A stretch of 63,822 nt of DNA, filler included, from Stramenopiles sp. TOSAG23-3 (Eukaryota): assembly GCA_900128585.1 (NCBI GenBank). It is 6 parts of 6 records of this genome, joined end to end, with 100 filler letters (N's around TTAATTAATTAA, not from the genome) between each part and the next. Parts side by side here need not be neighbours in the genome. Positions count along the whole stretch, not along the records: positions 49,688 to 61,984 come from LT642693.1; 5 more parts are not named here. One strand, written 5' to 3'. Made by a program: the position numbers and the translations under genes. Below are positions 12,363 through 58,581 of the stretch, in pieces (position 1 is the first letter of the stretch; each line of letters starts with the position of its first letter). Below the pieces are notes generated by a model, which saw nothing but the letters and a program-made list of their open reading frames with translations, made no database searches and was not told the origin of the DNA.

Positions 12363-12462
12363 NNNNNNNNNNNNNNNNNNNNNNNNNNNNNNNNNNNNNN
12401 NNNNNNTTAATTAATTAANNNNNNNNNNNNNNNNNNNNNNNNNNNNNNNNNNNNNNNNNNNN
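12363..12462. other. Artificial contig linker
   Basis: 44 N + TTAATTAATTAA (stops in all six frames) + 44 N. Confidence 0.98.
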
Positions 12463-21800: not shown

Positions 21801-22364
21801 ATAACCCGCGCCTTTACATTAGCCAGCCAATTGCGAAAAGCAGCAGTAGCAATTTCCATGTTAAACCAAATAATACCTTCGTTCTCGGAACGTCTCGTAT
21901 CTCTACCTGCCGCTCCCTTTTTCGGGGCACCCTTTGCTGTGTTCCGGGGTTTGTTGCGACTTTCTTTTGTGCCAGTAGACTCGTCTAACGTTGGCGGGGG
22001 CAATGTTTTGGGCCCTTCCTGCGGGGCACGGTCGCTTTTGGCCTTGGATACCGCCGGCTGCGATGGTAAGACCTCGTCCGATTTTGACGAAACGGATTTA
22101 GATTGTTCAGGATCTTCGGCCTGTTTTGCAGCTGGCGTTGGGTTTGTACCAGAAGACACACCAGCGTCTGGTTCTTGCGACTCACTTAAGCCTGGTTCTT
22201 GCGACTCACTTAAGCCACTCACTTAAGCCGGGTTCTTGCGACTCACTTAAGCCAGATTCTGGCGAATAAATAGAATTGGATGCCAAGATTGGAGAGGCAT
22301 TAACGTTTGCAGCCTCGCCGTCGCCTTTCAACAAAGGCGACGTCTGCTGTTCTCTATCACCCAT
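12817..22364 (-). CDS. PIEZO: Piezo-type mechanosensitive ion channel (~3180 aa if two frameshifts at ~22217-22229 and ~13970 are repaired)
   Basis: Dozens of TM helices; DRIIYMWR, SSLQISYGYP, IPLVYELKVLLDW (PFEW-like), KFEDI and PRGMKQ. The C-terminal ORF has the inner helix IGGFIRVFF and ELIDVYRCPEKIYERT. ATG at 22364 lies in a GCCATGG context. Confidence 0.93.
22169..22253. repeat. 24-bp coding tandem repeat (GLSESQEP) in the Piezo N-terminus: three full units plus one 13-bp truncated unit
   Basis: (T/G)GGTTCTTGCGACTCACTTAAGCC at 22169, 22193 and 22230; truncated unit at 22217-22229. Confidence 0.9.
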
Positions 22365-24783: not shown

Positions 24784-24883
24784 NNNNNNNNNNNNNNNNN
24801 NNNNNNNNNNNNNNNNNNNNNNNNNNNTTAATTAATTAANNNNNNNNNNNNNNNNNNNNNNNNNNNNNNNNNNNNNNNNNNNN
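24784..24883. other. Artificial contig linker
   Basis: 44 N + TTAATTAATTAA + 44 N. Confidence 0.98.
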
Positions 24884-25163
24884 TAACATTGAATAACATC
24901 TAAAATGGCGAAAAAACTTATTATTTTATTAACCAAAAAAAGAAGAAGAAGAGCAAGAAAGATCAACAACTTGGATGTTGGAGCAAGAAGCCTAGAACTA
25001 TCATCAAATAATTATTAGTATTAAAAAAAAGAAGAAGACCAACAACAACAACAAACTAAACAAAGAAGAAGAATTAGCAAGAAGTCGTTCGTAGTTCTTC
25101 GTACTGTAGCAGCAGATTTTCGATTGGTTAGTTGATTTATTGTTGGTGCGTGCACACATACAA

Positions 25164-28100
25164 ATGGACGCTGGGGAAACGGTTTCCCCGCCAGGCGAAC
25201 CCGCCACCGCTACCGCCCCTTCCCTCTATTCAGGGGCTTTGAGGTGCGTGCGACAGACGCAAGCGTTGACATATAAGAACCTGCTGTTACAAAAACGTAA
25301 TTTAAAATCGACGTTTGCGGTCTACCTCTCTAGTTTTTTTTTGTTGTTAGCTCTTTTTTTAGCAGGAATTCCCGTGGATAATTTATGGAAAGAGGGTCTG
25401 CCGCAATCGCGTGATGAGCCGTCCCCGGAGTCTTACCCCATTGAAAAGTCTCGCTGTTCTCTTCACTCGGAACGTGAGCTTTGTTACGAATTTGTCATGG
25501 TTGGAAATACAACGCACGACAGAGAGATGGCGACGAACATACAAAGCCTGTCAGGCGCAAAAGGTGAAAATATGAATGACGGTTGGATCGCAGTTGCAAG
25601 TAGGGAAGACTTTCATACATGGACACTTGCAAACAAGAACATTTCACGAGTAGGAATCCAAATGTTATGGCCTTTGGACGGGGTTTATAGTTCAACGCTG
25701 AACATGTACAACCCTACATCGAATGAGATTACTTACGTCGTTCATTTCAACGAGTCTAAAAATTGCATTGATGGCTATCTGGGTTGTGAAGAGAGATATT
25801 TAAATAAAATTGCTGCGTGGCAATTGATCGTCGATTCCGCGCTGATACGTTTACTTGCAAAAAAAGAAGGGAAAACTCCGTACGAAAATGCTGAAATCAA
25901 AGCGTCGATGAAAGCATCGCCACACCCCCCGAACAATTTTATATATTTTGACATTTTCGGGTGGACCGGGAAAAATTTTTGTTTAATTGCTATTTCGTTT
26001 AATTTCGTTGTTCAAGCGTATCAGATGACGAGGGAGAAAGAGTTGAGGCTTCCAGAAATGTTAGCACAGATGGGCATGGGCCATAGTGCCTATTACGGGT
26101 CTTGGGTGATCACGCATGCAATTACAAACCTGATTCAGTCAGTTTTGATTATATTCTTCGGGTATGTTTTCAATTTCAACATGTTTGTAAAAACGGATTT
26201 CTCTATCTTGTTTTTTACATTCTTCTTGCCGTGCTCATCGTTCACGGCACTTGCGTTCTTGATTTCTGCTTTCTTTCGCAAAGCAATGAACGCGAGCAAC
26301 GTTTGCATGGTGGTATTTGTGTTGGCATACAACGCGGCGGACCTTCTTTCTGGGCTGGTAATACAAAGCGGGGAAGAGGAAAATAATTTTTGGAAATGGT
26401 TTTTCACTTACCTTCCAATAGGAAACGCCCCTATCGGATTTTTTGTAATGCTCAATCAAGCGTTTGATGGCGCGAGTGAGGGACGGTCGGGCCTCAAGTG
26501 GGCGGACCGTACTCGGGACATTACAAACCCCGAGTTCAACGACGACGGTTCCCCTAGCAATGCCTTCTGGAGCGTGGAAACAACTATGGTACACACTGTT
26601 ATATTTACACTTGTTTGCACTCTTAGTGCCGTTTACATCGACATGATACTGCCGAACGGGTACGGAAAGACCCGATCGCCTTGGTTTTTCCTAAGGTGTT
26701 TTTCTCGTCACCGTCGCACGCCAACGGGAAACGTTACGAACTTACGTGACGCCATCGATACGGCAGAATGTGGAGTTGATCCTGATGTTGTTGCAGAAGC
26801 AGCACGTGTGAAAAAAGGCGAAACAAACGGTCGCGACATTGCCATCGAGTTAGTGGGGTTGTCTAAACTCTTTCACGAGGGTGATTTGAAAGCAGTCGAT
26901 GGCATCTCATACGGGGTTGACAACAACTCTCTGTTCGTGTTGCTTGGCCACAATGGTGCCGGGAAAACCACTACGATTAACATGCTCGTAGGCAACATGG
27001 CCATTTCGGGGGGGGTCGCATTGATACATGGATTGCCGGCCTCGACTCATATGGATCGAATTAACTCACAGATGGGGGTATGCCCACAGCACGACGTGCT
27101 TTGGGACGAATTGACTGGGTACGAGCATTTGCACCTATTTGCAACGATGCGAGGAATGGAGGGGGGGGAAAGAGAGAAGGAAGTTGCGTTGCGTTTGGGG
27201 GAAGTTAATTTGCAAGCCTCGGCTCACATTCCATCTGGAATGTATAGCGGTGGGATGAAACGCCGACTGTCGATCGCGTGCGCAATGGTGGGAAACCCGA
27301 CTGTTCTATATTTAGACGAGCCAACCACTGGCATGGACCCTGTCACACGGAGAGAGGTGTGGACGATGATACAAAAGGCTCGGGTTGGTCGCGTTGTCAT
27401 GCTGACCACACATAGCATGGAAGAAGCTGACGTTCTTGGTGATCGAATAGCCGTCATGAGTCATGGGAAGATTCAGGCGTACGGCACAAGTCTTTCGCTG
27501 AAAAACAAGTACGGGCAAGGACTAAAGATGACGTTGCTGCTACAAGGTGGTGGCGATGCTGCCCGGGCGACGGAGTTTGTGACGAGTAGAATTTCGAAAT
27601 CAGAGGTCATAAAACAGGTGGAACAGGCTTTGTTCTTTCGCCTTCCTTCAAAAACTGAAGAAGGGGAAGGCACGATTGTGGAGTTTTTCAAGGAGTTGGA
27701 GTCCAAAAAAAGCAACCATGGGATCGAGGAGTTTTCTGTCGGGCTTTCTACATTAGAAGAAGTGTTTTTGGAATTGTCAAAGCGCGATAAATTTATCAAC
27801 GACGAAGACGAAGAACCCCCAATAAAGCCCGGAAAATTTGAAAGGATGATCATAAGAGTCGGGAAGAGACTGCCATCCATCTTTGGCCCGAAAGAACGAG
27901 TGTTTCACTCCATACTGTTCGCCCCATTTGGTGTTGTGAATTTGGTCCTGAATTTAATATTGTGGAAACGGCAACGGGCATACCCAAATGCAAAAAATGG
28001 CACTGTTCTAAAAACGTCACGACGACCGTTTTGTGCTCCACGTTTCAATTACGATGCAAAAATAGTCCCGCCGGAGATTGCAAAAGCAATCACCCAAAAC

Positions 28101-31100
28101 GAATGGCGCAGCCTGTTAAACCAACTCAATAATCCAATGCTAAAACATAGTGTTGGTCCATTTAAATGGTTCCTTTGGAATGTTTTGTGCCATTTTCACT
28201 TGTTTAACGCTTTTGCATTGACAGAAGACCCAGCGTCTGCACTAATAAGCTATGTTTTTGGATTGCTGATAATGGGCGTTTTTACCCTGTACTATTCATT
28301 GAGACGAAGTTCAGCCATGGCGTCCCTGGGTAGCATCATCCGCTCTAACTCAAGGATCAGTGTGAATATTGAGAGCCACGGGCTAACGTCAGGGAATGTG
28401 AATACCGCATTAGCGGATCTGTTTTATGACAGGAGGTGGTGCGCTGTGATTGAAGTAGTGGGGGCAGAGCCCGTAGAAAATGTTGTCGAATCTACATTAT
28501 GCAGTAGCTTATGCAAGTCAAAAAGACGTTATATTATTCCGACATCGCTTAACGGAGCAAAAAGAAAAACAACTTTTGGTAGTGCGCGAAAAGCCTTGCA
28601 AACGAAAGCCCTGGCGCTTATGAAACGTAACTGGGTGAGCATCTTTTTTACCATGTGCTTTCCTGTTGCAATTTTTGGGTTGCTGCTCTGGGTAGATACT
28701 GGCATTCTTTGGAAATACAGGTGGGAAGAAATGTGTGGGGATAATATTTATACAGCAGAGGAATGCCGAGACAAGGGCTTCAACATGAGCTGTGTTGCTG
28801 GGATATTCTCAAAGTGGCAATTACCCTCGCGAGGGGAACACCTGCATTTTGATAACAAAGAGGACGGTAGTGGGAACAACGAGATATTGGATCCAAGTGG
28901 AAACCAAACATGGGTTTGGGCCTACGATACCCTAAGACCTTATTACCGCATGAACATGTCAAACTTGGGAAGCACCCATGTTGGTAGTCGGAAAATATCG
29001 AACTACAAGAAAGGCGGCGATGGATTGGCGACCTGGTTTCAAAACTTGGAGCTGCTTTTAACAGATAGTCGTTACGACTGTCGTTTACTACAGTACGACG
29101 ATTGTTGGAACTATTGCGAGAAATCAACTGAAAGCGATTGTTCGGAGGAATGTATAAATTTACAGCAAGCAGAAGAATGGTACTCTCTCAATCCAAAGTC
29201 ACCAGCAGGAAATGAATCAAAAGGAACGACGAATACGACAACTGCAAAAGTCCCAGATGGTATTGATGCATGCAAACCCGAATTCCAAACCAACAGCAGG
29301 GGGAAAAGGCGGACCGGTTCCTCCTGGTCTCCCGACCAGAAATACATTAACCAAATTGATGAAGATAGCCGTTTTCGACGTGCATGTTTGACGCAAAGTT
29401 ATCAAAACTTAGCACGATGGTTCAATACAACCCAAGCAGATTTTGGAAGCTCAACAGATTTCAATTTGATTGCCGCTGTTGACGCAGTTACAGTAACCAA
29501 GGAAGGGATTTTGGGGGAGTTCACGACTGAGCAAGCAGCACGTTTTTACCAAGCGGATGGAGATGGGGGTCCCCATGTAGGGTTCGAGACCTTCTGGGAC
29601 AGTTTAATACAGGGAGATTCCTCCAAATGGGAGCCCGAAACCAACTGGTACGAATCTATAACACGCACGGATTTAATATCGAATCTTACCGCAAGCGGCA
29701 TATCGCCGCTGACTCTTGGTTTTGGTTTTGTGTCGTCTGAAAAATGGTGCAAGGTGTTTGGAACAATTGTTGGAACTTATCCATTCCTTGAACAAGAATA
29801 CGATCGTGCCCTTAGAAAGGTTTTGCAGAGTGGAGAAGACCAGTTGATGAGCACTAGACAATTCTGCAAAGTGGCTCTGAATCTTGACGTAGTTCGTGGG
29901 CTTGAAATAGACGCAGATGCTTCAATGGAGGAGTTGGATAGAACAATCTACGGCATATTTGATAAAAATGAAATTGTTCAAACCAAGCTGATGAAGAAAA
30001 GGAAAGATAACATGAAAGCCATTGGCCATCGATTTGTTGCAAGCAAAGCGGAGTATCTGTCCTATGCGTTCAATAAGGTAGATGCTACTAACAAGCGGTA
30101 TGAGTACACTGTATACATCAACGTCACGTCCGTTGACAGGGCACAAATCGGTTCATTTGCAAAAGACTCCCTGGACCTAGGTGTTCGCGTGTATATGATG
30201 GATTTTGCAATATTGAAGAATTTAGGGTTCCAAAAAAAACTAGGTCGGCCATATATTGAGACGTTCAAACGGGAATTTAAATGCAACCGTGACGAGTTGT
30301 TAGATGCGTGGCTGGATCCAACACAGCCCAGATTACCCGCTATTGATTGCCCCAGTCTACTGCAAGGGTTTCTAGCGTTACCAATTGTGGATTTTATTGT
30401 TGCCGTGCTGCTGATGTTTATTTTTATATTGCCATTTCTTGCGACCATGGTGTCTGTTGTTACAGATAAAGAGAACAAGACCGGAATAATTATGAAAATG
30501 ATGGGGTTAAAACCCTCTGTATACTGGACGGTTACATACTTTATCGAGCTCGCGAAGATAGAATTATACATGCTGGTGATCCAAATATTTGGTATCAATT
30601 TCGGATTTAAAATGTTTACGTTTCACGAACAATTCCAATTCGCACTGATGCTATTTTTGTTTTCTAATGTTTTGGTAATATTTTCATTCTTTTGCTCAAC
30701 ATTTGTTTCGAGCACATACACGACCGTTGCCTTGTCGTTTTTGTTTATTACGCTATCATTCTCGCTTGGTTTCGTTTTCATTCATTTCGTGTACGGTTTT
30801 GGTGGCGGTTTGGCGTCATCGTTCACCCCGTTTATGATCCATCCATTTTGGGTGTTCTATCGGTATTTGGACGGCTTAGCAATCATGCTTTTTTTTAATG
30901 ATTTTAAAGGGGTTGCTTTGAATCTTGACAATGAATCGCAGTATTTGGGCAGTCTGTTTACCACTTGTTTTGGGCTTCTAGTGCTGCATTGGTTTGTTTG
31001 GTTCTTTCTCTGGGTGTACGCATTAAATGTTCTGAACGTTGGAGATGGGACAAAGCAGTCTCCCCTTTTCTGTTTGCGCAAAGAGTACTGGGACGGTTTG

Positions 31101-32411
31101 TGCGGTACCGGTAAGGCGGTGGAAATAAAACAGGGATTGACAAAAGTGCAACTCGATGCCGTACCGGACATAGTAAATGAAAATGCCGTAGCATCCACGG
31201 GAAATCCTTGGGATCGGCCCCATGATGTTGAATCGGAACATTGCCGGATAGTTAACATTATGCTCAAGTATGATAAGGGTGCTCGAATTGCTGTCGCTGG
31301 CCTCCACAAAGTCTTTGGCGAAGGGACGAGGCACAAAAAGGTGGCTGTAAAATGTGTAAGCTTTGGCGTGCAAAAAAATGAGTGCGTCGGTGTGCTTGGC
31401 CACAATGGTGCGGGAAAGACCACCACGATCAACATGCTGACGGGCCTTTTTGCGCCCTCTGCGGGTGTTGCGGTGGTCAATGGCCATAATATAAGCGAAG
31501 GGTTTTCCCCAATTTATGCAGAGATGGCCGTGTGCCCACAGCATGATATTTTATGGCCGAAACTGACTGCAAAAGAACATTTAGAATTTTTCGGCCAGTT
31601 AAAAGGTTTCTTCAAGGGTGCTCTAGACGACAGAGTTCGCGAGGCGTTGAAGCAGGTGAACCTGATGCCTTTTTCCAACCGTTATGCTGGAGGGTATTCT
31701 GGGGGAATGAAGCGGCGTTTATCTATGGCAAATGCCTTGGTGGGCGATCCTTCCGTGGTCTTTATGGACGAACCGTCTACCGGGCTGGACCCTGCATCGA
31801 AGCATCAGTTGTGGGAGGTAATATCTTCGGCGAAGGGGCAACACAAATCGATGGTTTTGACTACGCACAGTATGGAAGAGGCCGACGTCTTGTGCGACCG
31901 CATTGCGATTATGGCATCTGGTGAAATACAGTGCGTAGGGGCAGGGTATCAGTTGAAACGAAGGTTTGGAAAAGGGTATACTTTCCAAATTTCATCGTCA
32001 AAAGATATGTCAGCAATCGATGAATATGTCCACTCGCTGTTTCCCTCCGCTCGCATTTTGGGAGAACCAATTGGGGGACTGGCAAAGTACGAAGTATCTA
32101 GAAAGGATGTAGTCATGAGCACGGTGTTCTCCGAATTAACAGAAAATGTCGAGAAAACTGAAAAACTTGGAATTACAAGCTGGGGCATAATGGAAACGAC
32201 ATTGGAAGAAGTGTTCTTAAAGTTAGCAGCACTTGCAGACATATTTGAGCACACGGAGGTAACAACTCTTGTCAAAAAGGATCAGTCAAAAAGTTTGGCT
32301 TGCCAGATATCAATGCTGGACTCGGAAGCGGCGGCGATGGAATCGGTACAAGTTCCAATCGTTGTTGGCGAAGAAGTAAAGGGAGAAAAGAGGAGAAAAG
32401 AGAAGAAATGA
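25164..32411 (+). CDS. Full-size ABC transporter, subfamily A
   Basis: Two NBDs (GHNGAGKTT; YSGGMKRRLS; LDEPTTGMDP / MDEPSTGLDP; LTTHSMEEAD), two TMDs with large exoplasmic loops, and TLEEVFL motifs; first ATG at 25164. Confidence 0.96.
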   Translation: MDAGETVSPPGEPATATAPSLYSGALRCVRQTQALTYKNLLLQKRNLKSTFAVYLSSFFLLLALFLAGIPVDNLWKEGLPQSRDEPSPESYPIEKSRCSLHSERELCYEFVMVGNTTHDREMATNIQSLSGAKGENMNDGWIAVASREDFHTWTLANKNISRVGIQMLWPLDGVYSSTLNMYNPTSNEITYVVHFNESKNCIDGYLGCEERYLNKIAAWQLIVDSALIRLLAKKEGKTPYENAEIKASMKASPHPPNNFIYFDIFGWTGKNFCLIAISFNFVVQAYQMTREKELRLPEMLAQMGMGHSAYYGSWVITHAITNLIQSVLIIFFGYVFNFNMFVKTDFSILFFTFFLPCSSFTALAFLISAFFRKAMNASNVCMVVFVLAYNAADLLSGLVIQSGEEENNFWKWFFTYLPIGNAPIGFFVMLNQAFDGASEGRSGLKWADRTRDITNPEFNDDGSPSNAFWSVETTMVHTVIFTLVCTLSAVYIDMILPNGYGKTRSPWFFLRCFSRHRRTPTGNVTNLRDAIDTAECGVDPDVVAEAARVKKGETNGRDIAIELVGLSKLFHEGDLKAVDGISYGVDNNSLFVLLGHNGAGKTTTINMLVGNMAISGGVALIHGLPASTHMDRINSQMGVCPQHDVLWDELTGYEHLHLFATMRGMEGGEREKEVALRLGEVNLQASAHIPSGMYSGGMKRRLSIACAMVGNPTVLYLDEPTTGMDPVTRREVWTMIQKARVGRVVMLTTHSMEEADVLGDRIAVMSHGKIQAYGTSLSLKNKYGQGLKMTLLLQGGGDAARATEFVTSRISKSEVIKQVEQALFFRLPSKTEEGEGTIVEFFKELESKKSNHGIEEFSVGLSTLEEVFLELSKRDKFINDEDEEPPIKPGKFERMIIRVGKRLPSIFGPKERVFHSILFAPFGVVNLVLNLILWKRQRAYPNAKNGTVLKTSRRPFCAPRFNYDAKIVPPEIAKAITQNEWRSLLNQLNNPMLKHSVGPFKWFLWNVLCHFHLFNAFALTEDPASALISYVFGLLIMGVFTLYYSLRRSSAMASLGSIIRSNSRISVNIESHGLTSGNVNTALADLFYDRRWCAVIEVVGAEPVENVVESTLCSSLCKSKRRYIIPTSLNGAKRKTTFGSARKALQTKALALMKRNWVSIFFTMCFPVAIFGLLLWVDTGILWKYRWEEMCGDNIYTAEECRDKGFNMSCVAGIFSKWQLPSRGEHLHFDNKEDGSGNNEILDPSGNQTWVWAYDTLRPYYRMNMSNLGSTHVGSRKISNYKKGGDGLATWFQNLELLLTDSRYDCRLLQYDDCWNYCEKSTESDCSEECINLQQAEEWYSLNPKSPAGNESKGTTNTTTAKVPDGIDACKPEFQTNSRGKRRTGSSWSPDQKYINQIDEDSRFRRACLTQSYQNLARWFNTTQADFGSSTDFNLIAAVDAVTVTKEGILGEFTTEQAARFYQADGDGGPHVGFETFWDSLIQGDSSKWEPETNWYESITRTDLISNLTASGISPLTLGFGFVSSEKWCKVFGTIVGTYPFLEQEYDRALRKVLQSGEDQLMSTRQFCKVALNLDVVRGLEIDADASMEELDRTIYGIFDKNEIVQTKLMKKRKDNMKAIGHRFVASKAEYLSYAFNKVDATNKRYEYTVYINVTSVDRAQIGSFAKDSLDLGVRVYMMDFAILKNLGFQKKLGRPYIETFKREFKCNRDELLDAWLDPTQPRLPAIDCPSLLQGFLALPIVDFIVAVLLMFIFILPFLATMVSVVTDKENKTGIIMKMMGLKPSVYWTVTYFIELAKIELYMLVIQIFGINFGFKMFTFHEQFQFALMLFLFSNVLVIFSFFCSTFVSSTYTTVALSFLFITLSFSLGFVFIHFVYGFGGGLASSFTPFMIHPFWVFYRYLDGLAIMLFFNDFKGVALNLDNESQYLGSLFTTCFGLLVLHWFVWFFLWVYALNVLNVGDGTKQSPLFCLRKEYWDGLCGTGKAVEIKQGLTKVQLDAVPDIVNENAVASTGNPWDRPHDVESEHCRIVNIMLKYDKGARIAVAGLHKVFGEGTRHKKVAVKCVSFGVQKNECVGVLGHNGAGKTTTINMLTGLFAPSAGVAVVNGHNISEGFSPIYAEMAVCPQHDILWPKLTAKEHLEFFGQLKGFFKGALDDRVREALKQVNLMPFSNRYAGGYSGGMKRRLSMANALVGDPSVVFMDEPSTGLDPASKHQLWEVISSAKGQHKSMVLTTHSMEEADVLCDRIAIMASGEIQCVGAGYQLKRRFGKGYTFQISSSKDMSAIDEYVHSLFPSARILGEPIGGLAKYEVSRKDVVMSTVFSELTENVEKTEKLGITSWGIMETTLEEVFLKLAALADIFEHTEVTTLVKKDQSKSLACQISMLDSEAAAMESVQVPIVVGEEVKGEKRRKEKK

Positions 32412-37189: not shown

Positions 37190-37289
37190 NNNNNNNNNNN
37201 NNNNNNNNNNNNNNNNNNNNNNNNNNNNNNNNNTTAATTAATTAANNNNNNNNNNNNNNNNNNNNNNNNNNNNNNNNNNNNNNNNNNNN
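37190..37289. other. Artificial contig linker
   Basis: 44 N + TTAATTAATTAA + 44 N. Confidence 0.98.
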
Positions 37290-49587: not shown

Positions 49588-49687
49588 NNNNNNNNNNNNN
49601 NNNNNNNNNNNNNNNNNNNNNNNNNNNNNNNTTAATTAATTAANNNNNNNNNNNNNNNNNNNNNNNNNNNNNNNNNNNNNNNNNNNN
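49588..49687. other. Artificial contig linker
   Basis: 44 N + TTAATTAATTAA + 44 N. Confidence 0.98.
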
Positions 49688-49721
49688 GTTGAGCTCCAAG
49701 CACCTCTCCAGCGCCGCCGCC

Positions 49722-52700
49722 ATGGCCACCGGCGCCACGCCTCCCTCCACACGGAAGACCCTCCGGGAGAGGCTGCTGTCGTACTTTACCGCCCATGCGC
49801 CGGGGAAAATATCAACCCTCGACATTTTGGTCGAAAAGGTCGCTGCCGCGAGCGGGTGGGACGAGCAGAGGCTGGCGGCCGCGCTGGAAAGCAGGTACGG
49901 CGAGGCCTTTCGCGTCCCCGCGGGCTTACCCGCCGCCCAGCGGGCCACAGCAAAGCCCGCCGCGGCGATCGGCGCGTTCTTCGACCTGTCCAAGGACGGG
50001 AAGCGGGAGTCGCTGACCGAGGCGCGGACAAGGGAGTTGTTCGAAGGGATCACGCCAACGAACGCGCCGGGGATCACGAAGATTCAGCTGAGCAACAAGA
50101 GCTTCGACGCCCCGTCGGCCCGGGTCGCAGCGGAAAAGCTAACGTTGATGAAGAATTTGAAGTTTGCCGACCTGTCCGACATCATCGCCGGCCGGGAGAC
50201 CTCCATCGGGCTCGAAGTGCTAAACATATTCAGTAAAGCCCTCGTTGAGACCCCGTTGGTGTGGGTGGACCTGAGCGACAACGCCCTGGGGCCCAGGGGC
50301 GTCAACGTCTGCGAGCCCTTGCTCAGCTCGAGCGAAACGTTGGAAGGGATCGCGTTTAAGAACGACGGGTTGTCCGCCGAGGCGTGCGAGGAGATCACGC
50401 GCCTCTTTCTCAAGCTCAGCAGCCCCACCCGTTTGAAAAAGCTTCACTTTTGGAACAACATGAGCGGGGACGGGGGCGCGGTTGCCATTGCGAAGCTTCT
50501 GAAGCAGTCCCCCTACATTGAAGACTTCATGATGGCCACGACCAGGTGCGGGGAGGGCGGCGGGGTCGTGCTCTGCAAAGCCTTGAAGCACTGCACCATG
50601 CTTCACACTGTCGACATGAACGATAACACCTTCAACGTGTCCGGCGCGAAGGAGCTCAGCTTGTCCCTCCTGTCGCTCCCTCGACTGACGGAGCTGAACA
50701 TTGGGGACCTGAATTTCCAGGACGAGGGGATGGCCAAAATATTCAAAGCCCTCGGCGGCGACCACGCATGTCCCCTGCTCGAGCGGCTGCACATCCACTA
50801 CAACGACCTCACCCATCGGCCCCTCCGGCTCCTAGGGCAAGTCTTGAAAGGGAAAGCGAACTTTCAATACTTGAAACTCACGGGGAATGAAATTGGGAAC
50901 AAAGGGACCGGAATTCTGGCGTCGGTCCTCGACGGCTGCGGGGCCGCGCTGAAGCTCAAGGAGCTACACCTTCAAGAGTGCAACATACACGACCGGGGCG
51001 CAAAACACCTGAAGCAGATCATTGCAGGGTCGCCGTCCTTGGCGGTCCTTAACCTCGAAGACAACTTCATCCCTTCGCAGTCCCAAGGCAAGCTCCTTGC
51101 GGCGGCAGCGGGCGCTGGGGCCAAGCTTATCTTTGAAAACAACGAGTCGGAGGAAGAGGACTACGAGAGCGAGGCGGACAGTGATGCGGAGGAGGCCGCC
51201 GGCGACGCGGCCCTGGTGGGAGGTACGCCGGCCATATCGTACGGAAACTTTTCCGAGCATTTCTCGTCCGCACCAGCACCGGCGTTTCCGGCGGCTGGGG
51301 CAACGGCGTCCGCGCCAGCGAAGGGGCTGTTTGGGTTCAACTCGGGGCAGGATAGTGCGTTTGATGCGAGCGCGCTGAAGGCGCTATCCTTTGGCAAGGG
51401 GGCAGGTAGGGCCGATCAGACCAACCTTCGCGACGACCTCATAGCACTCTTTGGGAAGGCCAACCCCTCCAAAATCGCCACCGTCGACATTTTATTGGAA
51501 AAGGCCGCCAAGGCAGGCACGGCGAAGGTGCTCTTAGAAAAAGTCAAAAACAAATACGACGCAGCGCTGCCGAAACCGTCCGCCAAGGACTTTCGAATGC
51601 AGCTAATTGCCTTCTACGAGGCCAACGCCCCGGATAAACTAGTCTCTGTGGATATTGTTCTGGCAAAATTTGCGGGCAGGCACGATGCGCTCGTAAAGTC
51701 GCTGGAAACCAAGTATGGCGCGCCGTTCGCGGGCGCGGCATCGACCGTCCGCGAGCAGCTCATCGATTTGTTCGCAAAGCACAATCCGGCGCGAATACAA
51801 ACCGTGGATATTTTGCTGGAAAAAGCAAAGACCGACGCCACGATAACAGAAAAGGCTTTGGTCGAGCGAGTGGAGAACAAATACGGCCTGCCTGGGGCGC
51901 CAAATACGGCCATGGCCGCAGGCAGTGCGGCCACGGTGTCATCGGAGCAGGGCGTGTTTGACATAAAAGAGGGCGAAAAGCAAGAGTTTGAAACGTTCGA
52001 CGGCGCGGCGAGCATGGAGGAGAGGTTGGGGAAACGCTCGGCACCGCCCCAGCTCGAACGGTGCGGTGTTTTGACGTTGTCGTCAAAAAGTATCGGACCC
52101 GAGGCGATGAGAAGCCTCTGCAAACGCTTCGTAGCCAAGATGCCTAATCTGCACACGTTAAATTTCTGCTGCATAACGCACGACCGCGACCCCTCGAAGG
52201 GGGTTGGCGCCGAGGCATGTGGGATATTGGTCGACACGGTCTTGGCCGGGAAAACGAACAATAGTGGAATCCGATGCGTCGACGTTAGCTCAAACGAGCT
52301 GGGGCCGAATTCTGGTAGGGTGTGGGGGAAGCTCCTTCAAAGCAGCGCTTGTGCGTCTACACTAGAAGAACTCTACGTCAACTGCAAGCACAAATTCCGG
52401 CACTCGTACCCGTTGAGTGCGTGCGAAGACTTGGTCGAGTACACTACGGACGGTGGAAAGAGGTCCGCGCTGCCCCTGAAAGTGCTGGAAATATCCAACC
52501 ACAACCACTCCGAAGAAGGGGACGACGCCGGGGACGAGGCTGCGGGCATATTTTCGCGGTTGCTTCAGTGTTCCCCGTTCCTCCGATCGTTCGTGTACCG
52601 CGCAAACACGTGCAGCGTCAGAGGGTGCGAATCGCTTGCGCAAGGCCTCCGGGCGGCGTCGCGCGCCATTACGTCCTTGGACCTGAGCGACAACTCCATC

Positions 52701-55700
52701 AAAGCAGAGGGCGGAATCGCGTTGTCGAGCCTGCTGAAGGATACAACATGCCTGAAAGTCCTGAAACTCGAAGACACCTCCCTTGGAAACGAAGGGATCC
52801 AACCCATCTTTGGAGCCCTGAAAGACTCGAGCGTTTGCCGTGGGCTCGAAATACTGTCCGTAGCGTTCAATGATATCGACTGCGATGGCCTCGGGGATTT
52901 CGATGCCGTCGTGCGGACCAAGACCTGCCTTTCTGTATTAAATCTGGAGGGAAACCCGCTGAGCTTCGAAGGGGCCGAACTGGTCGCGGAGGCGTTCCGG
53001 GGGAGCCAGTCGGCGCTGGGGGCATCCTTGACGGTGTTGAACTTGTCCGAGTGTGAGCTCACCAACCGTTCGGCGGTTATGATTGGAAAAGTTCTGACGG
53101 ACGGAAAGTTTTTCAAGCGCCTGTCTGCGGTAGAGTTGAACAGCAACAATTTGACGGACGATGGGGTGACGGTAATGAGAGGCCTTATAAACAGCAACCT
53201 CGGCAACGACGAAGCCGTTCTGGGAAGCATGGAGGACAACGAGGACTTGGAAGAAGGCGACGAGGCCGATAAGATCGACAGCGACCTTCTGTCACTATAT
53301 TTGACGGAAGCTAACACGAAAGACGTTGCCGATGTCCCCGACGCGCCAGGCCAAGGTGCGAGCAGTGGGGGAGGCGGCGGCTTTGCGGCCCTCCTTGCAG
53401 CTGCCAGCGGGGCTCCAGGAAGTTGGAAATGCCCGGTGTGTGGTGTTTACAACAAAGAAGATGCAGCGAAGTGCGTGTGCTGCGAAGCCGAAAACCCAAA
53501 CGGTCCTCCCCCAGGGCAGAAAGTAGAGGCGCCAAAGCCTTCCGCCGCATCGCTGTTTCGAAGCGGGAACGACGCGGGAAAGATATCGTTCAGCATGGGA
53601 GCGGCACCAAGCAGTGGGGCGGCCGTCTCGTTTGGAGGCGGCAACGCGGGCGGTGGTGGCGTCACGTTCGGCGCTACGGGCGGTGGTGGCGTCACGTTTG
53701 GTTCTACGGCCGGCGGTACGGGGAATGCCGGCATTACATTCGGGGCAGCTGACAAAGGTGCGAGCGGCGGTGCTGTTACATTTGGGTCCAACGCGTCTAC
53801 GACGGGGGTATCGTTTGGTTCCCAGCCGCCGTCCGACGCGAAGGCTGCTAGTAATGGAATCATGTTTGGGGCAGCCCCTTCTTCAGGCGGTATCAACTTT
53901 GGCACCAAAAACACGGACACAAAAGCGTCTTTTGGGTCCTCTACATCTTCAACGGGGATTTCGTTCGGTACAAAGCCGGAATCTGCAAGCAAAGGATTTT
54001 CATTTGGCGGTGAGAAGTCGAGCGGGTTTTCGTTCGGGGCAATGAAGCCTGCGGAAGCTGGCAAGGAAGACGATGGAGAAGAGGAGGAAGAAGACGAAGA
54101 TTTTGACCCCAACGAGGAGGAAGAATCCGAGGAAGAATCCGAGGAAGAATCCGAGGAAGACTCGGCAGCGAGTGAAGAGGAAGAGACAGAGGATGAGGAA
54201 GAAGAGGAGGCTGAATCAGAAGATACATCCGAGATAAACGTTGGCGAAGGCTCCGAGGAAAAAACGTCCGATGGGGCGTCCTCTTTTGGAGCAGCGTTCG
54301 GGAGCAAGCCTGGACAGAGTTCTGGGTTTTCGTTTGGAAGTGCGCCTGCTGCAACTACTGGGGTTGCATTTGGCAGCAGCCCTGCGACAACTACTGGTGT
54401 TGCATTCGGCAGCACGCCTGTGGCAACTAACGGGGCTTTTGGGGGAGGCAAGCCTGCGGAGAGCTCCGGTTTTTCGTTCGGAAGTGCGCCTGCAGCAACC
54501 ACTGGTGTTGCGTTTGGAAGCAAGCCTCTGACAAACAGTGGCATTGCCTTTGGAAGCAAGCCTGCGACAACTACTGGTGTTGCATTTGGAAGTAGCGACC
54601 CCGCGAAAACTGCCGGGGTTGCCATTGGGAAAACACCTGTGACAACCACTGGGGTTATATTTGGAAGCAAGCCTCTGACAAACAGTGGCATTGCCTTTGG
54701 AAGCAAGCCTGCGACGACTACTGGTGTTGCGTTTGGGAGTACCGCTGCAGCAACTACCGGGGTTGCGTTTGGAAGCAAGCCCGCGACAACTGCTGGGGTT
54801 GCATTTGGAAGCAAAACCGCGACAACTGCCGGGGTTGCGTTTGGAAGCAAAACCGCGACAACTGCCGGGGTTGNNNNNNNNNNNNNNNNNNNNNNNNNNN
54901 NNNNNNNNNNNNNNNNNNNNNNNNNNNTGCCGGTGTTGCATTTGGAAGCAAGCCTGCGACAACTGCCGGGGTTGCGTTTGGAAGCAAGCCTGCCACAACT
55001 ACTGGTATTGCATTTGGGAGTACCGCTGCAGCAACTACCGGAGTTGCATTTGGAAGCAAAACCGCGACAACTACCGGGGTTGCATTTGCAAGCAAGCCTG
55101 CGACAACTGCCGGGGTTGCGTTTGGAAGCAAGCCTGCCACAACTACTGGTGTTGCATTTGGAAGCAAGCCTGCGACAACTGCCGGAGTTGCCTTTGGGAC
55201 TACACCAAAAGTACCGTCTACTTTTACGGAGAAAAAAGTAGACACACCTCCGGGAAGCGGGAAACAGGAAAGCAAGGGAGAGGCAGTGGTGACGACGCCC
55301 AACACAAGCAACGCTGCAGGCGGCGATTTGACAATTTCTTACGGCGACTTTGCAGAACATTTTCAAGACGTAGATTTTGGCGACGTAGATGTGACCCCAA
55401 TAACGAATGGGGACTTGACTGCCACGTCCAACATTTTGGACAAATCGGCGATCCCGTTTAGCTTTACCAAAACAGACGGCGGTGCGGTGGGAAAAGGCAG
55501 CAAGGCCCACCTGAACAAGAAGATTGACGAGCTGTTGCACGCGCACGGGAAATCCCACATCGCAAAGTCTGTGAAAGCCCTGGTCCACCATGGTCCTGGC
55601 GCTGTAGAGACCGGCAGCTTGTCGCCCGCCGTGTCCTCGCCCATTATCGTTCTTCCTGGCTCGCCCCGGACAGGGTCTCGATTGAACAAGCGCATCGTGA

Positions 55701-56056
55701 ATGCGCCATGGGGACCGAAATTGGAGCCCGACGAAAAGCAAAGTGAGAAGGACGTCCGCACCGCAAAATCTTGGTGGCGGCATCGCCCTCGCTCTGAACG
55801 CCGCGCCGCCATAGCCCAGGCACTGCGGATGTGGGCAGGCGCCCGTTTGCCCGTCATGCCAACCTCATCGGTGCACGAACATTCGTTCAAAACCGAAGGC
55901 GCGTACACAGCAAAACGGTTTTTGAAACAGACACGGTTGATGATTTCGACAAAAGATACGGAGTATCTCGGTGCTGTCATATTGGAAACTGCCAATCAAC
56001 TTGGACAGCTCAAATCCCTATTGCCAAGTTGGGGACGCAACATCGTTGGGGTGTAA
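49722..56056 (+). CDS. RANGAP1: Giant RanGAP-like protein: two RanGAP LRR domains, four small helical repeats, RanBP2-type zinc finger and FG-repeat region (~2100 aa; frame offset only across the N gap at 54874-54927)
   Basis: LSNKSF...ADLSDIIAGR...DLSDNALGPRGV...NDGLS...LHFWNNMSGDGGA plus an acidic tail; a second LRR block ending LGSMEDNEDLEE; WKCPVCGVYNKEDAAKCVCC; dozens of xFG motifs. After the gap, frame 54929 runs in frame into 55286-56056. May be 5' truncated. Confidence 0.85.
54330..55200 (+). repeat. ~36-bp coding tandem repeat (GVAFGSKPATTT-like), interrupted by a 54-N scaffold gap
   Basis: Repeated GGTGTTGCATTTGGAAGCAAGCCTGCGACAACTACT variants on both sides of the gap. Confidence 0.9.
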
Positions 56057-56461
56057 ACTTGAAGTAATATTCGCATGAAATGTATAAAATGTTTTGTACA
56101 ACAAACATCCTAATAAATTTATATTTCATTACAATACTTGTATTATTTGAATAGTCTATGTAAACAATGTACCATTAATCTAAAAAAAAGAAGTGAGAAA
56201 AAATAAAATATTATTTGCTTTTTTTTAGAGTGTAGCAGCAATACCAAGTATATCATCATATAACAACGAACACATTATTCAATATTCTTCAATAAAATAT
56301 TAAAGAGAAAACATATTTGCATGTGACGTGAGTGAAGTACAAACGAGTCATGAAGTAAAGTATGACATCATGTTTTAAAATCGATGTTCGTCATTTTGTT
56401 GTGGTTGCTTGGTTGCATCGATTTCATTCATTCGATTCATTTCAATTACGCTTTCTTTCGT

Positions 56462-56481
56462 TCTCTCCCTCTCTCTTTCTT

Positions 56482-56513
<32 letters not shown>

Positions 56514-56522
56514 TGTGTGTGT
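56462..56522. repeat. Compound (CT)n(GT)n microsatellite
   Basis: Direct reading; ends 24 bp before the ATG at 56546. Confidence 0.9.
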
Positions 56523-56545
56523 TTGTGTCTTTGTACTGAACGAGA

Positions 56546-57052
56546 ATGGAGTTGGCGTCGCGTGCTGTTTTAATCGTTTTTGCAATGCAAGCGATGGTTG
56601 GTGATGCCTCAAGAAACCATCATCTTCCCGCCCCAAAAGATGGGGATGCCCACTGGTCACACGACAAATCCGTCATGGTGGCCTGCGGGCACGAGGGGCT
56701 GGTGGACATATGCCGAGGAGTCCTGGAAGATGGCGACGATATCTATGGAGGGCATGCGTGCTGCGGACGTGGGGGCGGTCCGTTCCGGGCACGTGTCCAT
56801 CCCCACGGAAGGCCAATTGAGTACACCCCGAACTGGGCGGACCCGATCGCCCACGACCACGACAAAGGTTTGACAGCGTTGCACCGTGCGGCAGCGCACG
56901 GGCACCTGGATATTGTAAACTTCTTGTTAAATGCTGGATGGACGAACGACCAGCGGGCAGAGAATGGTGAGCTGCCGAGCGACGCGGCCCGGCGGAACGG
57001 GCACGTCCGGCTTGCGGAAGGATTGGAAGAGCTGTACAAAGAGGAGTTGTAG
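56546..57052 (+). CDS. Small ankyrin-repeat protein with signal-like N-terminus
   Basis: GLTALHRAAAHGHLDIVNFLLNAG, GELPSDAARRNGH and ACGHEGLVDICRGVLEDG. Confidence 0.85.
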   Translation: MELASRAVLIVFAMQAMVGDASRNHHLPAPKDGDAHWSHDKSVMVACGHEGLVDICRGVLEDGDDIYGGHACCGRGGGPFRARVHPHGRPIEYTPNWADPIAHDHDKGLTALHRAAAHGHLDIVNFLLNAGWTNDQRAENGELPSDAARRNGHVRLAEGLEELYKEEL

Positions 57053-57156
57053 TAAATTTTTAAATTGTAAATCTTACCCTGACGCGCGATACTTGTTTTG
57101 TACTTTATACATGTTTCTCTCTGGTACTTCCACTTTCGTCCTCCCGGTCCGGCTAG

Positions 57157-58185
57157 TCAGGAGCAAAACCCTTCAAAGAGGCGCTGCCGGCGTGCCTTTG
57201 TCCGGGTGACCCGGTACGACAGACAAGGCATTTGTACCTTTTCGTTCTTCTGGATCGGCTTCCACCGGGGGCTGTGGGGTCCGTAGCGTGCCCCCTCTGT
57301 GCAAGGGTCTAAGAGAATCTTCACATCTTCGGACGCCCCGCACTTAATTGTCCGCTCCTTTCGCTCTAGTGCCTCCATAAGTTGGTGCATGTTGGCCGCG
57401 TTGGCAATGTAATCTGCCTGCTCCCGCTTTGTCATGGTGCGAAACTTCGGATGAAGCTTTCTGGTGTCTACGGGGGAATGGTCAAGGAATTCGTGGGCCA
57501 GAAGACGCTTCCCAAGGGCCATTCTATGCCGCAAGCGGCGCTTCAACCGTTTCCCCATGATTGGGTTCAGCAGGTCGTCTACCGTCGCCCCTTCGGCGCG
57601 TAGAATCAGGTTCGACAACCGCGCCTCAGTCTCGTCGACGTTCCCATCCCCGTCAAAGTCAATCCCAACCGATTCGTTCATGGCCTTTCGTTTCGCCCTC
57701 AACTTTTCCAGCGTGGTCGGTTGTTGGGCAAGGTCGTACTCCGGCTTCCAGCACGGCGTAAACGCCCGTGGGGGTACGCCTAGACTCCCCGGGGGAGCCC
57801 TTGGCGAGACATAATTGCACGTCGTTCCACGAGTGGCGTAGCTCCCCCATCGCGGTTTTCGCTTCAGCTTCGTCAACTCTTGTTTCTCCGCAACGCCGAC
57901 GTGGTCGTGAAGGTGCGTGGTGTTCCACCCCTTGTTGGCAACTCTCCACGTCGATTGTCGCCGTTTCGAGAACCTCATCCCGGCGTTCGTTTTGTTCCAT
58001 GCCGCCCCCTTCTCATACGCCGCCTTTTTCGCCACGTCAACGTCTTCACTCATTGCAAGCATCCCTGTATTTCGATTGTGCCATTGTTTCCGGGGGGACA
58101 CGGGGTTCAACGGACCGACGGATCGTGGCGGCGGTGGTTTTGGAGGTGCCCGCGGCGACTTTCGACTGACCCGACGCGTTGGCAT
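57157..58185 (-). CDS. Basic hypothetical protein with a single EF-hand-like loop
   Basis: ATG at 58185; DFDGDGNVDETE; Arg/Lys/Pro-rich. Confidence 0.65.
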   Translation of the reverse strand: MPTRRVSRKSPRAPPKPPPPRSVGPLNPVSPRKQWHNRNTGMLAMSEDVDVAKKAAYEKGAAWNKTNAGMRFSKRRQSTWRVANKGWNTTHLHDHVGVAEKQELTKLKRKPRWGSYATRGTTCNYVSPRAPPGSLGVPPRAFTPCWKPEYDLAQQPTTLEKLRAKRKAMNESVGIDFDGDGNVDETEARLSNLILRAEGATVDDLLNPIMGKRLKRRLRHRMALGKRLLAHEFLDHSPVDTRKLHPKFRTMTKREQADYIANAANMHQLMEALERKERTIKCGASEDVKILLDPCTEGARYGPHSPRWKPIQKNEKVQMPCLSYRVTRTKARRQRLFEGFCS

Positions 58186-58581
58186 GATCAAACGATGGAG
58201 CAAACGAAATGGTTTTGAAACAGGGAAAAGTTTGTGTCTAAATCGAGTGGTGGTGGTGGTGGTTTTGATTTGAAAAACGATTGATCGTTGGTTCAATGTC
58301 AACTTGCATATAAGAGTATACAAATTATGCCCAGTTCCTTTTTTTGTTTTGGTGGTGTGAGTGAGTCAAATCAGTTTTAACGGACAAAGATATTTATATA
58401 GGAATTGTAATAGTATACTAATTAGAATAAAAGTATAACCATAGAAAAAAAAGATAATAATAATAATAAATTATTATTATGGATTATTGAATTGATGCTC
58501 TTCTACGATCCATCCTTCCGTTCTTCGTGACGTTTCTTCAACTTTGTGTACTTTTCTCTTTCCTTTCTATAGAGGGACAAT

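Follow-up and report, generated by a model that had tools for sequence, protein, structure and literature searches.

How do eukaryotes other than animals, plants and yeasts position RanGAP, the GTPase-activating protein (GAP) of Ran? According to a 2025 paper, positioning differs among these three groups and is unknown for most of eukaryotic diversity. The paper lists attachment through SUMO and RanBP2 in animals and through the WPP domain in plants; yeasts do without anchoring, and for trypanosomes the mode is given as unknown. A 2025 review concurs for animals and yeast. The question is raised anew by a gene in a 63,822-nucleotide stretch of DNA (the window) from Stramenopiles sp. TOSAG23-3 (GenBank assembly GCA_900128585.1). 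This gene, hereafter the fusion gene, encodes RanGAP-type leucine-rich repeat (LRR) domains, a RanBP2-type zinc finger and phenylalanine-glycine (FG) repeats. An earlier note, made from the sequence alone, had read it as a RanGAP built into an FG-nucleoporin and proposed a possible third way of tethering the enzyme at the nuclear pore. We show that the fusion gene is conserved across three lineages and present in RNA libraries, and its domain content suggests a so far undescribed covalent placement of RanGAP at the pore.

A single intron-free gene encodes the fusion

Read from the N-terminus, the encoded protein consists of two helical repeats, a first RanGAP domain (LRR1), three further helical repeats, a second RanGAP-type domain (LRR2), the finger, the FG repeats with an acidic island, and a C-terminal domain. 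The features within the window, all on the plus strand, are as follows.

49688-56056, plus strand: fusion gene, in-window part; intronless, cut at its 5' end and interrupted by a 54-N gap; the complete open reading frame (ORF) has 2021 codons in the metagenome contig L001
49755-49913, plus strand: helical repeat, second copy (the first is located 5' of the contig edge)
49974-51200, plus strand: LRR1, RanGAP LRR domain (residues 85-493 when translated from 49722); acidic tail, 51129-51200
51234-51263, plus strand: short Ser-Tyr-Gly-Asn-Phe motif, copy 1, after LRR1; coordinates counted by hand
51420-51899, plus strand: helical repeat, copies 3-5
51939-53288, plus strand: LRR2, second RanGAP-type LRR domain; LRR to 53279, acidic tail at 53220-53288
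53424-53483, plus strand: single RanBP2-type C4 zinc finger with the exact pattern W-x-C-x2-C-x3-N-x6-C-x2-C
53631-54038, plus strand: FG repeat block 1, with 12 FG
54045-54242, plus strand: acidic island of 66 residues, Asp/Glu-rich, splitting the FG repeats
54285-55198, plus strand: FG repeat block 2, built of tandem 36-nt (12-residue) units and containing the scaffold gap 54874-54927
55334-55363, plus strand: short Ser-Tyr-Gly-Asp-Phe motif, copy 2, after the FG region; conserved in the proteins P0046, P0047 and P0077
55634-56056, plus strand: orphan C-terminal domain (55634-56053, 140 residues) and stop codon

The copy in the window is incomplete. It lies within the piece 49688-61984, where its ORF is already open at base 49688 and is truncated at the 5' edge of the piece, with the loss of 66 codons. 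ATG 49722, which the earlier note had taken as the start, proved to be the internal Met78 of a longer ORF: the true start codon lies 231 nt further 5', as seen from L001 and from P0003, a protein of 386 residues whose N-terminus is identical to the fusion ORF of L001. Downstream, the FG array is interrupted by the 54-N scaffold gap, on the far side of which the reading frame is displaced by 2. The description of the gene as one reading frame thus fails in the window, owing to the 2-nt frame shift over the gap, but holds in L001, from ATG to stop.

To recover independent copies, a profile of the C-terminal domain was scanned over metagenome contigs, which yielded four loci out of 173 pattern matches. 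L001 (11,428 nt), a contig from a separate assembly, is 99% identical to the window and was taken as the same species. It carries a single unbroken ORF of 2021 codons, running from ATG to the stop codon shared with the window and containing no N. The two sequences align in two blocks, window 49688-54700 with L001 2443-7452 (99.3% identity) and window 54944-59165 with L001 7199-11428 (98.1% identity); both blocks overlap within the FG array, where the window has about 500 nt more than L001. In L002 (5,840 nt), which comes from a relative, the ORF is complete with 1840 codons and the domain order is unchanged. Compared with the query, the proteins P0046 (2125 aa) and P0047 (1834 aa) show 40% identity across 96-97% of its residues 1-1300 (E = 2.7e-261 for P0046); between themselves, identity is 57%. 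The whole domain order, including the C-terminal domain that lies beyond the gap in the window, recurs in these two relatives, P0046 and P0047/L002, at about 40% identity.

We also inspected public sequencing runs. The junction stretch was found in 20 of the 24 runs listed (11 studies; marine metagenomes and metatranscriptomes), and four runs from four different studies, two of DNA (X5 and X8) and two RNA libraries (X3 and X9), were placed on 49688-54290. One 4077-nt contig of X5 extends over 50055-54146, with seven differences and one in-frame 15-nt deletion. Contigs of X8 span 50281-52085, 52070-52923 and 52900-53985, joining LRR1 with LRR2 and the latter with the finger and FG repeats. From the RNA libraries, a 1026-nt contig of X3 covers 52747-53772 with no differences and a contig of X9 covers 53360-53616; RNA-library contigs cover 29 of 30 bins in X3 and 20 of 30 in X9. 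No splice-like joint was found among the contigs of the four runs on this stretch, and the sole joint listed is a 91-nt skip in the low-complexity acidic stretch 54097-54189 (X9, X5 and X8). The fusion is a single, real, intron-free gene. A misjoin near 53300, a possibility that the earlier note had itself raised, is excluded by the unbroken ORFs of L001 and L002, the domain order in P0046 and P0047, and the bridging DNA and RNA-library contigs.

LRR1 and LRR2, two RanGAP-type domains

To characterize the LRR domains, we built a RanGAP profile of 435 positions from 21 stand-alone RanGAPs. The match of LRR1 to this profile runs end to end (positions 11-413, 376.7 bits). Its best relative is P0004, an environmental two-domain RanGAP (E = 1.7e-98, 38% identity), followed by oomycete (Aphanomyces) RanGAPs (E = 7.5e-98 to 4.8e-92, 34-36% identity); oomycetes are the only named organisms among its nearest RanGAP relatives, and many environmental proteins named RanGAP rank after the oomycete matches. 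E-values such as those of LRR1 with P0004 and of P0046 with the query exclude chance. Among solved structures, LRR1 aligns with chain residues 31-316 of 385 of Schizosaccharomyces pombe Rna1p (E = 1.6e-21) and with human RanGAP1 (E = 4.4e-21).

We next defined 67 conserved columns, each at least 90% conserved across the 21 stand-alone RanGAPs. LRR1 retains 56 of these 67, together with an arginine at the alignment position of Rna1p 74. We take Arg74 of Rna1p, equivalent to human Arg91, to be the conserved arginine of the RanGAP family. The acidic tail of LRR1 (residues 470-493) is rich in Asp and Glu. A 2026 preprint names Asp245, Asp273 and Glu304 of human RanGAP1 as Ran contacts, and the LRR1 residues aligned to these three are Asp, Asp and Asp by a hand count on the Rna1p/RanGAP1 alignment. 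At 62-63% identity to P0046/P0047, LRR1 is, with the finger and the C-terminal domain, among the most constrained modules of the protein. By its profile match LRR1 is a canonical RanGAP domain, and the complete LRR domain with acidic tail that had been placed at about 49970-51200 was recovered at 49974-51200.

LRR2 likewise gives a single end-to-end match to the RanGAP profile (positions 7-407, 152.7 bits). It retains the conserved arginine and 36 of the 67 conserved columns, having lost 31. In the conserved Asn-Asp/Asn-Gly-Leu turn, LRR2 lacks the Asn, and a His/Arg-rich insertion common to the three lineages is found instead. Identity to P0046/P0047 is 34-36%. The helical repeats plus LRR2 are 26% identical to the helical repeats plus LRR1 over 599 residues, which indicates that the whole repeat-plus-GAP module was duplicated; on this alignment, LRR2 arose through duplication of that module, followed by strong divergence. 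Judged by the profile, it is probably a complete RanGAP-type domain that has diverged strongly, rather than an NLR-like domain, in line with the second RanGAP-like LRR domain with acidic tail predicted at about 51950-53290 and now delimited at 51939-53288. In a quick tree, LRR1 and LRR2 join one clade of stand-alone RanGAPs, with a Shimodaira-Hasegawa-like approximate likelihood ratio test (SH-aLRT) support of 90. The tandem domains of oomycetes stand apart from LRR1 and LRR2 and pair within each lineage. The placement of LRR2, a long branch, is provisional.

The zinc finger and the FG repeats

The finger at 53424-53483 shows exactly the W-x-C-x2-C-x3-N-x6-C-x2-C pattern described in the earlier note. 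In a search against the PDB, the 17 best of 27 matches are all Nup153 or RanBP2 fingers, the best single-finger match being 3gj8_B from Nup153 (E = 4.2e-06), and identity to the fingers of P0046/P0047 is 48-67%. By pattern and matches, it is a finger of the Nup153/Nup358 class.

The FG repeats, mostly of the form hydrophobic-x-Phe-Gly, extend over about 1.57 kb (53631-55198), and the acidic island divides them at 54045-54242, in agreement with the roughly 1.6 kb of xFG repeats with an acidic island reported before. After the finger there are at least 35 FG (28 before the N run and 7 beyond it, excluding the gap), and the 36-nt tandem unit extends over 54294-55197. The array at 54294-55197 corresponds to L001 7049-7452, a difference that may reflect either length polymorphism or assembly collapse of repeats. 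The in-frame 15-nt deletion of one metagenome contig, located at 53903, may likewise be either a length polymorphism or an assembly collapse.

Helical repeats, a short motif and an orphan C-terminal domain

Three elements were absent from the earlier list of features: the helical repeats, the short recurring motif and the C-terminal domain. The helical repeat is 50 residues long and probably forms three helices. It occurs in five copies, two before LRR1 and three between the LRR domains, and in the relative the repeats lie within L002 277-2838. Across an alignment of 10 copies, R, D-I, K and Y are invariant. The repeat has no Pfam relative and no usable match in the protein atlas, and its profile retrieved only two matches from the PDB sequences (E = 0.46 and 0.79). 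A helical repeat also precedes the RanGAP domain in the fragment P0032.

The C-terminal domain is 54-56% identical between lineages (P0046/P0047), and an exhaustive profile search of 1.84 billion representative proteins yielded just 5 that contain it. Together with the 50-residue helical repeat, it is a candidate for a new pore- or envelope-targeting module. An LSDAT/SLOG identity was considered for this domain and dropped: the atlas score was 0.87-0.89, under the 0.9 mark, and neither of the two structural models supports it, nor does the fold search.

A proposed mechanism and its rivals

Our best explanation, to which we assign a probability of roughly 60%, is that one intron-free gene encodes an active RanGAP kept at the pore by its finger, FG repeats and C-terminal domain. 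LRR1 would be an active Ran GTPase activator, the finger would bind Ran, and the FG repeats would bind karyopherins or join the FG meshwork of the pore, and an anchoring or organising role would probably fall to the C-terminal domain. The GAP would thereby be held at the site where karyopherin-RanGTP complexes exit the pore, and GTP hydrolysis and complex disassembly would take place at the cytoplasmic pore mouth without SUMO or WPP adaptors. We infer GAP activity, binding of Ran by the finger and of karyopherins by the FG repeats, and residence at the pore from what is known of the protein families; the roles given to LRR2, to the helical repeats and to the C-terminal domain are of the same kind.

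Several observations weigh against this explanation. Searching the protein against Pfam, including the full ORF, revealed no pore-anchoring domain of known nucleoporins, and no RanBP1-type domain at E ≤ 1. A RanBP1-type domain is required to free RanGTP from karyopherins before the GAP acts, and since the fusion protein has none, a separate RanBP1 must be assumed. The finger scores 26.7 bits against Zn_ribbon_RanBP (PF00641), just under the cut-off of 27, and the FG repeats score 18.1 bits against Nucleoporin_FG, whose cut-off is 32.2. Models of the C-terminal domain disagree, the one from three sequences being alpha/beta with a predicted local distance difference test score (pLDDT) of 52.8 and the one from seven sequences all-alpha with a pLDDT of 71.1. 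Foldseek gave no PDB fold match for this domain, with none of 206 hits at E ≤ 0.001 and a best value of 2.1. Finally, the RNA-library contigs may stem from DNA; they agree with transcription without proving it.

Two alternatives would undo the fusion or its connection to Ran. That we are dealing with an artefact, either a chimeric assembly or two adjacent genes taken for one, we consider to have next to no chance. The window copy does contain a scaffold gap with a frame change and does sit at a contig edge, but the ORFs of L001 and L002 are unbroken, the order is identical in P0046 and P0047, and the junctions are bridged by two DNA and two RNA-library runs from four different studies. Scarcely more credible is the view that the LRR domains are generic RNI/NLR-type repeats (RNI, ribonuclease inhibitor) without relation to Ran. 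Ribonuclease inhibitor equals RanGAP in the PDB search of a longer query (1.9e-21) and is the top PDB match of LRR2; however, its matches and those of NLRC5 are partial and repeated, and NLRC5 and another long LRR protein reach at most 80 bits per partial match on the RanGAP profile. The RanGAP matches, in contrast, are single and end to end, covering the non-repeat N-terminal part and the acidic tail, and both domains fall among RanGAPs in the tree. The earlier note had left room for LRR1 to cluster with NLRC3-like repeats; profile bits and the quick tree instead group it with RanGAPs, and the generic reading of LRR1 was rejected on its end-to-end RanGAP match and its tree position.

The other two alternatives accept the gene and differ in where, or how, its product would act. 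The main rival, unlikely in our estimate, is a soluble cytoplasmic RanGAP whose finger and FG tail capture karyopherin-RanGTP without stable docking at the pore. It would account for the lack of a known nucleoporin anchoring domain in the Pfam search, and a length variation of about 500 nt in the FG array between assemblies is what would be expected of a flexible tail; yeast Rna1p functions as a soluble enzyme. Yet beyond the FG region, in the position expected of an anchor, the protein ends in a C-terminal domain conserved at 54-56% identity, and finger-plus-FG combinations are otherwise known in pore proteins. Considerably less plausible is a Nup153-like protein of the nuclear basket whose RanGAP-type domains would bind Ran yet show hardly any GAP activity, or none. 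A finger followed by FG repeats is indeed the arrangement of Nup153, the best single-finger PDB matches are to Nup153, and 31 of the 67 conserved columns are missing from LRR2. Against this, LRR1 retains 56 of them, the arginine of Rna1p 74 and the acidic tail, and it is the most constrained module; moreover, the Ran gradient would collapse if an active GAP were present on the nuclear side. An active RanGAP held at the pore is thus the reading that we prefer.

Layout of the window and neighbouring genes

The window is made of contigs of about 12.3 kb chained by spacers that recur about every 12.4 kb. Each spacer has the form N44-TTAATTAATTAA-N44, where TTAATTAATTAA is a six-frame stop linker.

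12363-12462: spacer, N44-TTAATTAATTAA-N44
24784-24883: spacer, N44-TTAATTAATTAA-N44
37190-37289: spacer, N44-TTAATTAATTAA-N44
49588-49687: spacer, N44-TTAATTAATTAA-N44
61985-62084: spacer, N44-TTAATTAATTAA-N44

Because the contig pieces are joined by spacers, neighbouring pieces of the window are not physically linked, and the phosphofructokinase-like gene immediately upstream of the fusion gene sits on a separate contig. A second scaffold gap (60025-60065) lies inside a CTT repeat. At 61038-61984, an ORF runs to the contig end and encodes a regular repeat of about 40 residues in which Gly, Asn, Ile, Trp, Thr and Ser abound and whose style recalls Asp-box/BNR-like repeats; the long ORFs on the opposite strand are probably artefacts of the same repeat. 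Other contigs carry very long intron-free ORFs at 13958-22222 (minus strand) and 25140-32411, which encode a multi-pass membrane protein of 2754 residues and an ABCA-type transporter of 2423 residues. In a search with an ABCA transporter from another contig than that of the fusion gene, the closest among the 120 matches listed, of 7245, are environmental proteins. Judged by its long intron-free ORFs, the organism seems intron-poor.

A covalent RanGAP fusion in a copepod gene model

The search that retrieved the relatives of the fusion protein also turned up a different type of RanGAP fusion. P0057 from the copepod Eurytemora carolleeae, named RANBP2-like by NCBI, matches the Nup358 N-terminal domain, Ran-binding domains (RanBDs) and E3 region, and its residues 1685-2043 match residues 25-383 of human RanGAP1 (E = 6.7e-118). 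In this gene model, a complete RanGAP1 catalytic domain sits between a zinc finger and the RanBDs. The environmental proteins P0051, P0052, P0053, P0055, P0058 and P0062 show the same domain mix.

Like the protist protein, P0057 and its environmental relatives have a complete RanGAP domain joined covalently to finger, FG and Ran-handling modules. They are, however, true Nup358 homologues, with the N-terminal domain, two to four RanBDs and an inserted animal-type RanGAP1 domain, whereas in the protist protein homology to Nup358 is limited to the finger. The GAP domains of the two groups are far apart on the quick tree, so the fusions look independent, and covalent tethering of RanGAP probably arose at least twice. 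The copepod case further suggests that, within animals, a peptide bond can replace the SUMO tether. What remains of the proposed third way of tethering is a possible covalent mode beyond SUMO, WPP and the soluble enzyme, but one that is probably recurrent and not unique to the protist, as the copepod gene model shows a fusion too.

More speculatively, covalent RanGAP fusion may be a recurrent solution, with a small marine protist clade having built a pore-resident station for hydrolysis and copepods having independently inserted RanGAP1 into Nup358. The protist station would combine RanGAP with FG repeats, a finger that binds Ran and an anchoring domain of new origin; it would be the protist's only RanGAP and a functional stand-in for Nup358, and LRR2 would have been re-purposed as a non-catalytic holder of Ran or karyopherin. 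Taken as a whole this scenario is tentative, and we lean against its holding in every part.

Comparison with known RanGAP and nucleoporin systems

On present sequences, the fusion architecture is confined to a small clade of uncultured marine protists. Full-text literature searches, which did not cover supplementary files, found no description of a RanGAP-nucleoporin fusion in general or of the copepod RanGAP-Nup358 fusion in particular. The concern that the architecture might already be widespread and described was therefore not borne out.

Among known systems, the metazoan SUMO1-RanGAP1/Ubc9/Nup358 complex likewise joins a RanGAP LRR domain with acidic tail, Ran-binding fingers and FG repeats, and acts on karyopherin-RanGTP. 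Its link is made by SUMO, whereas that of the fusion protein is a peptide bond; the fusion protein also has two GAP-type domains, unlike the complex, and one finger as opposed to eight in human Nup358. In Pfam searches at E ≤ 1, the fusion protein showed no Nup358 N-terminal alpha-solenoid/TPR, RanBDs, E3 region or cyclophilin domain; for the C-terminal SUMO-attachment domain of metazoan RanGAP1, no further Pfam family was found on the full ORF at this threshold. The term "Nup358-like" used in the earlier note overstates the likeness, given the single finger and the lack of a RanBP1-type domain, an N-terminal domain and an E3 region.

The WPP-RanGAPs of plants also carry an extra targeting module within the RanGAP polypeptide, although in plants it is adaptor proteins at the nuclear envelope, rather than FG repeats or a finger, that are involved; the WPP domain itself (PF13943) gave no match in the fusion protein at E ≤ 1. 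Rna1p of S. pombe (PDB 1K5D and 1YRG), which aligns with LRR1 over residues 31-316, has Arg74 and the acidic tail in common with it, but is a soluble GAP domain alone, to which the fusion protein adds further modules. Nup153 resembles the fusion protein in that its fingers belong to the same class and precede FG repeats; it differs in its four fingers, its N-terminal pore-targeting region and the absence of a GAP domain, and resides on the nuclear side of the pore.

Two full RanGAP domains, as in the fusion protein, are also present in the tandem RanGAPs of oomycetes (Aphanomyces P0005, P0007 and P0008) and in the environmental P0004. These proteins are without finger, FG repeats, helical repeats and C-terminal domain, and both of their domains are canonical, with 55-59 of the 67 conserved columns. 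On the quick tree, their tandem duplications look independent of the one in the fusion protein, which suggests that duplication of the RanGAP domain was repeated independently in the lineages of P0004, P0005, P0007 and P0008.

By domain content, then, the fusion protein is outside the Nup358, Nup153, WPP-RanGAP and metazoan RanGAP1 architectures. As a natural fusion, in the manner of a Rosetta stone, it would tie RanGAP, a Ran-binding finger and FG repeats together functionally outside animals, and it would offer what amounts to a minimal, single-polypeptide and directly expressible version of the Nup358 platform.

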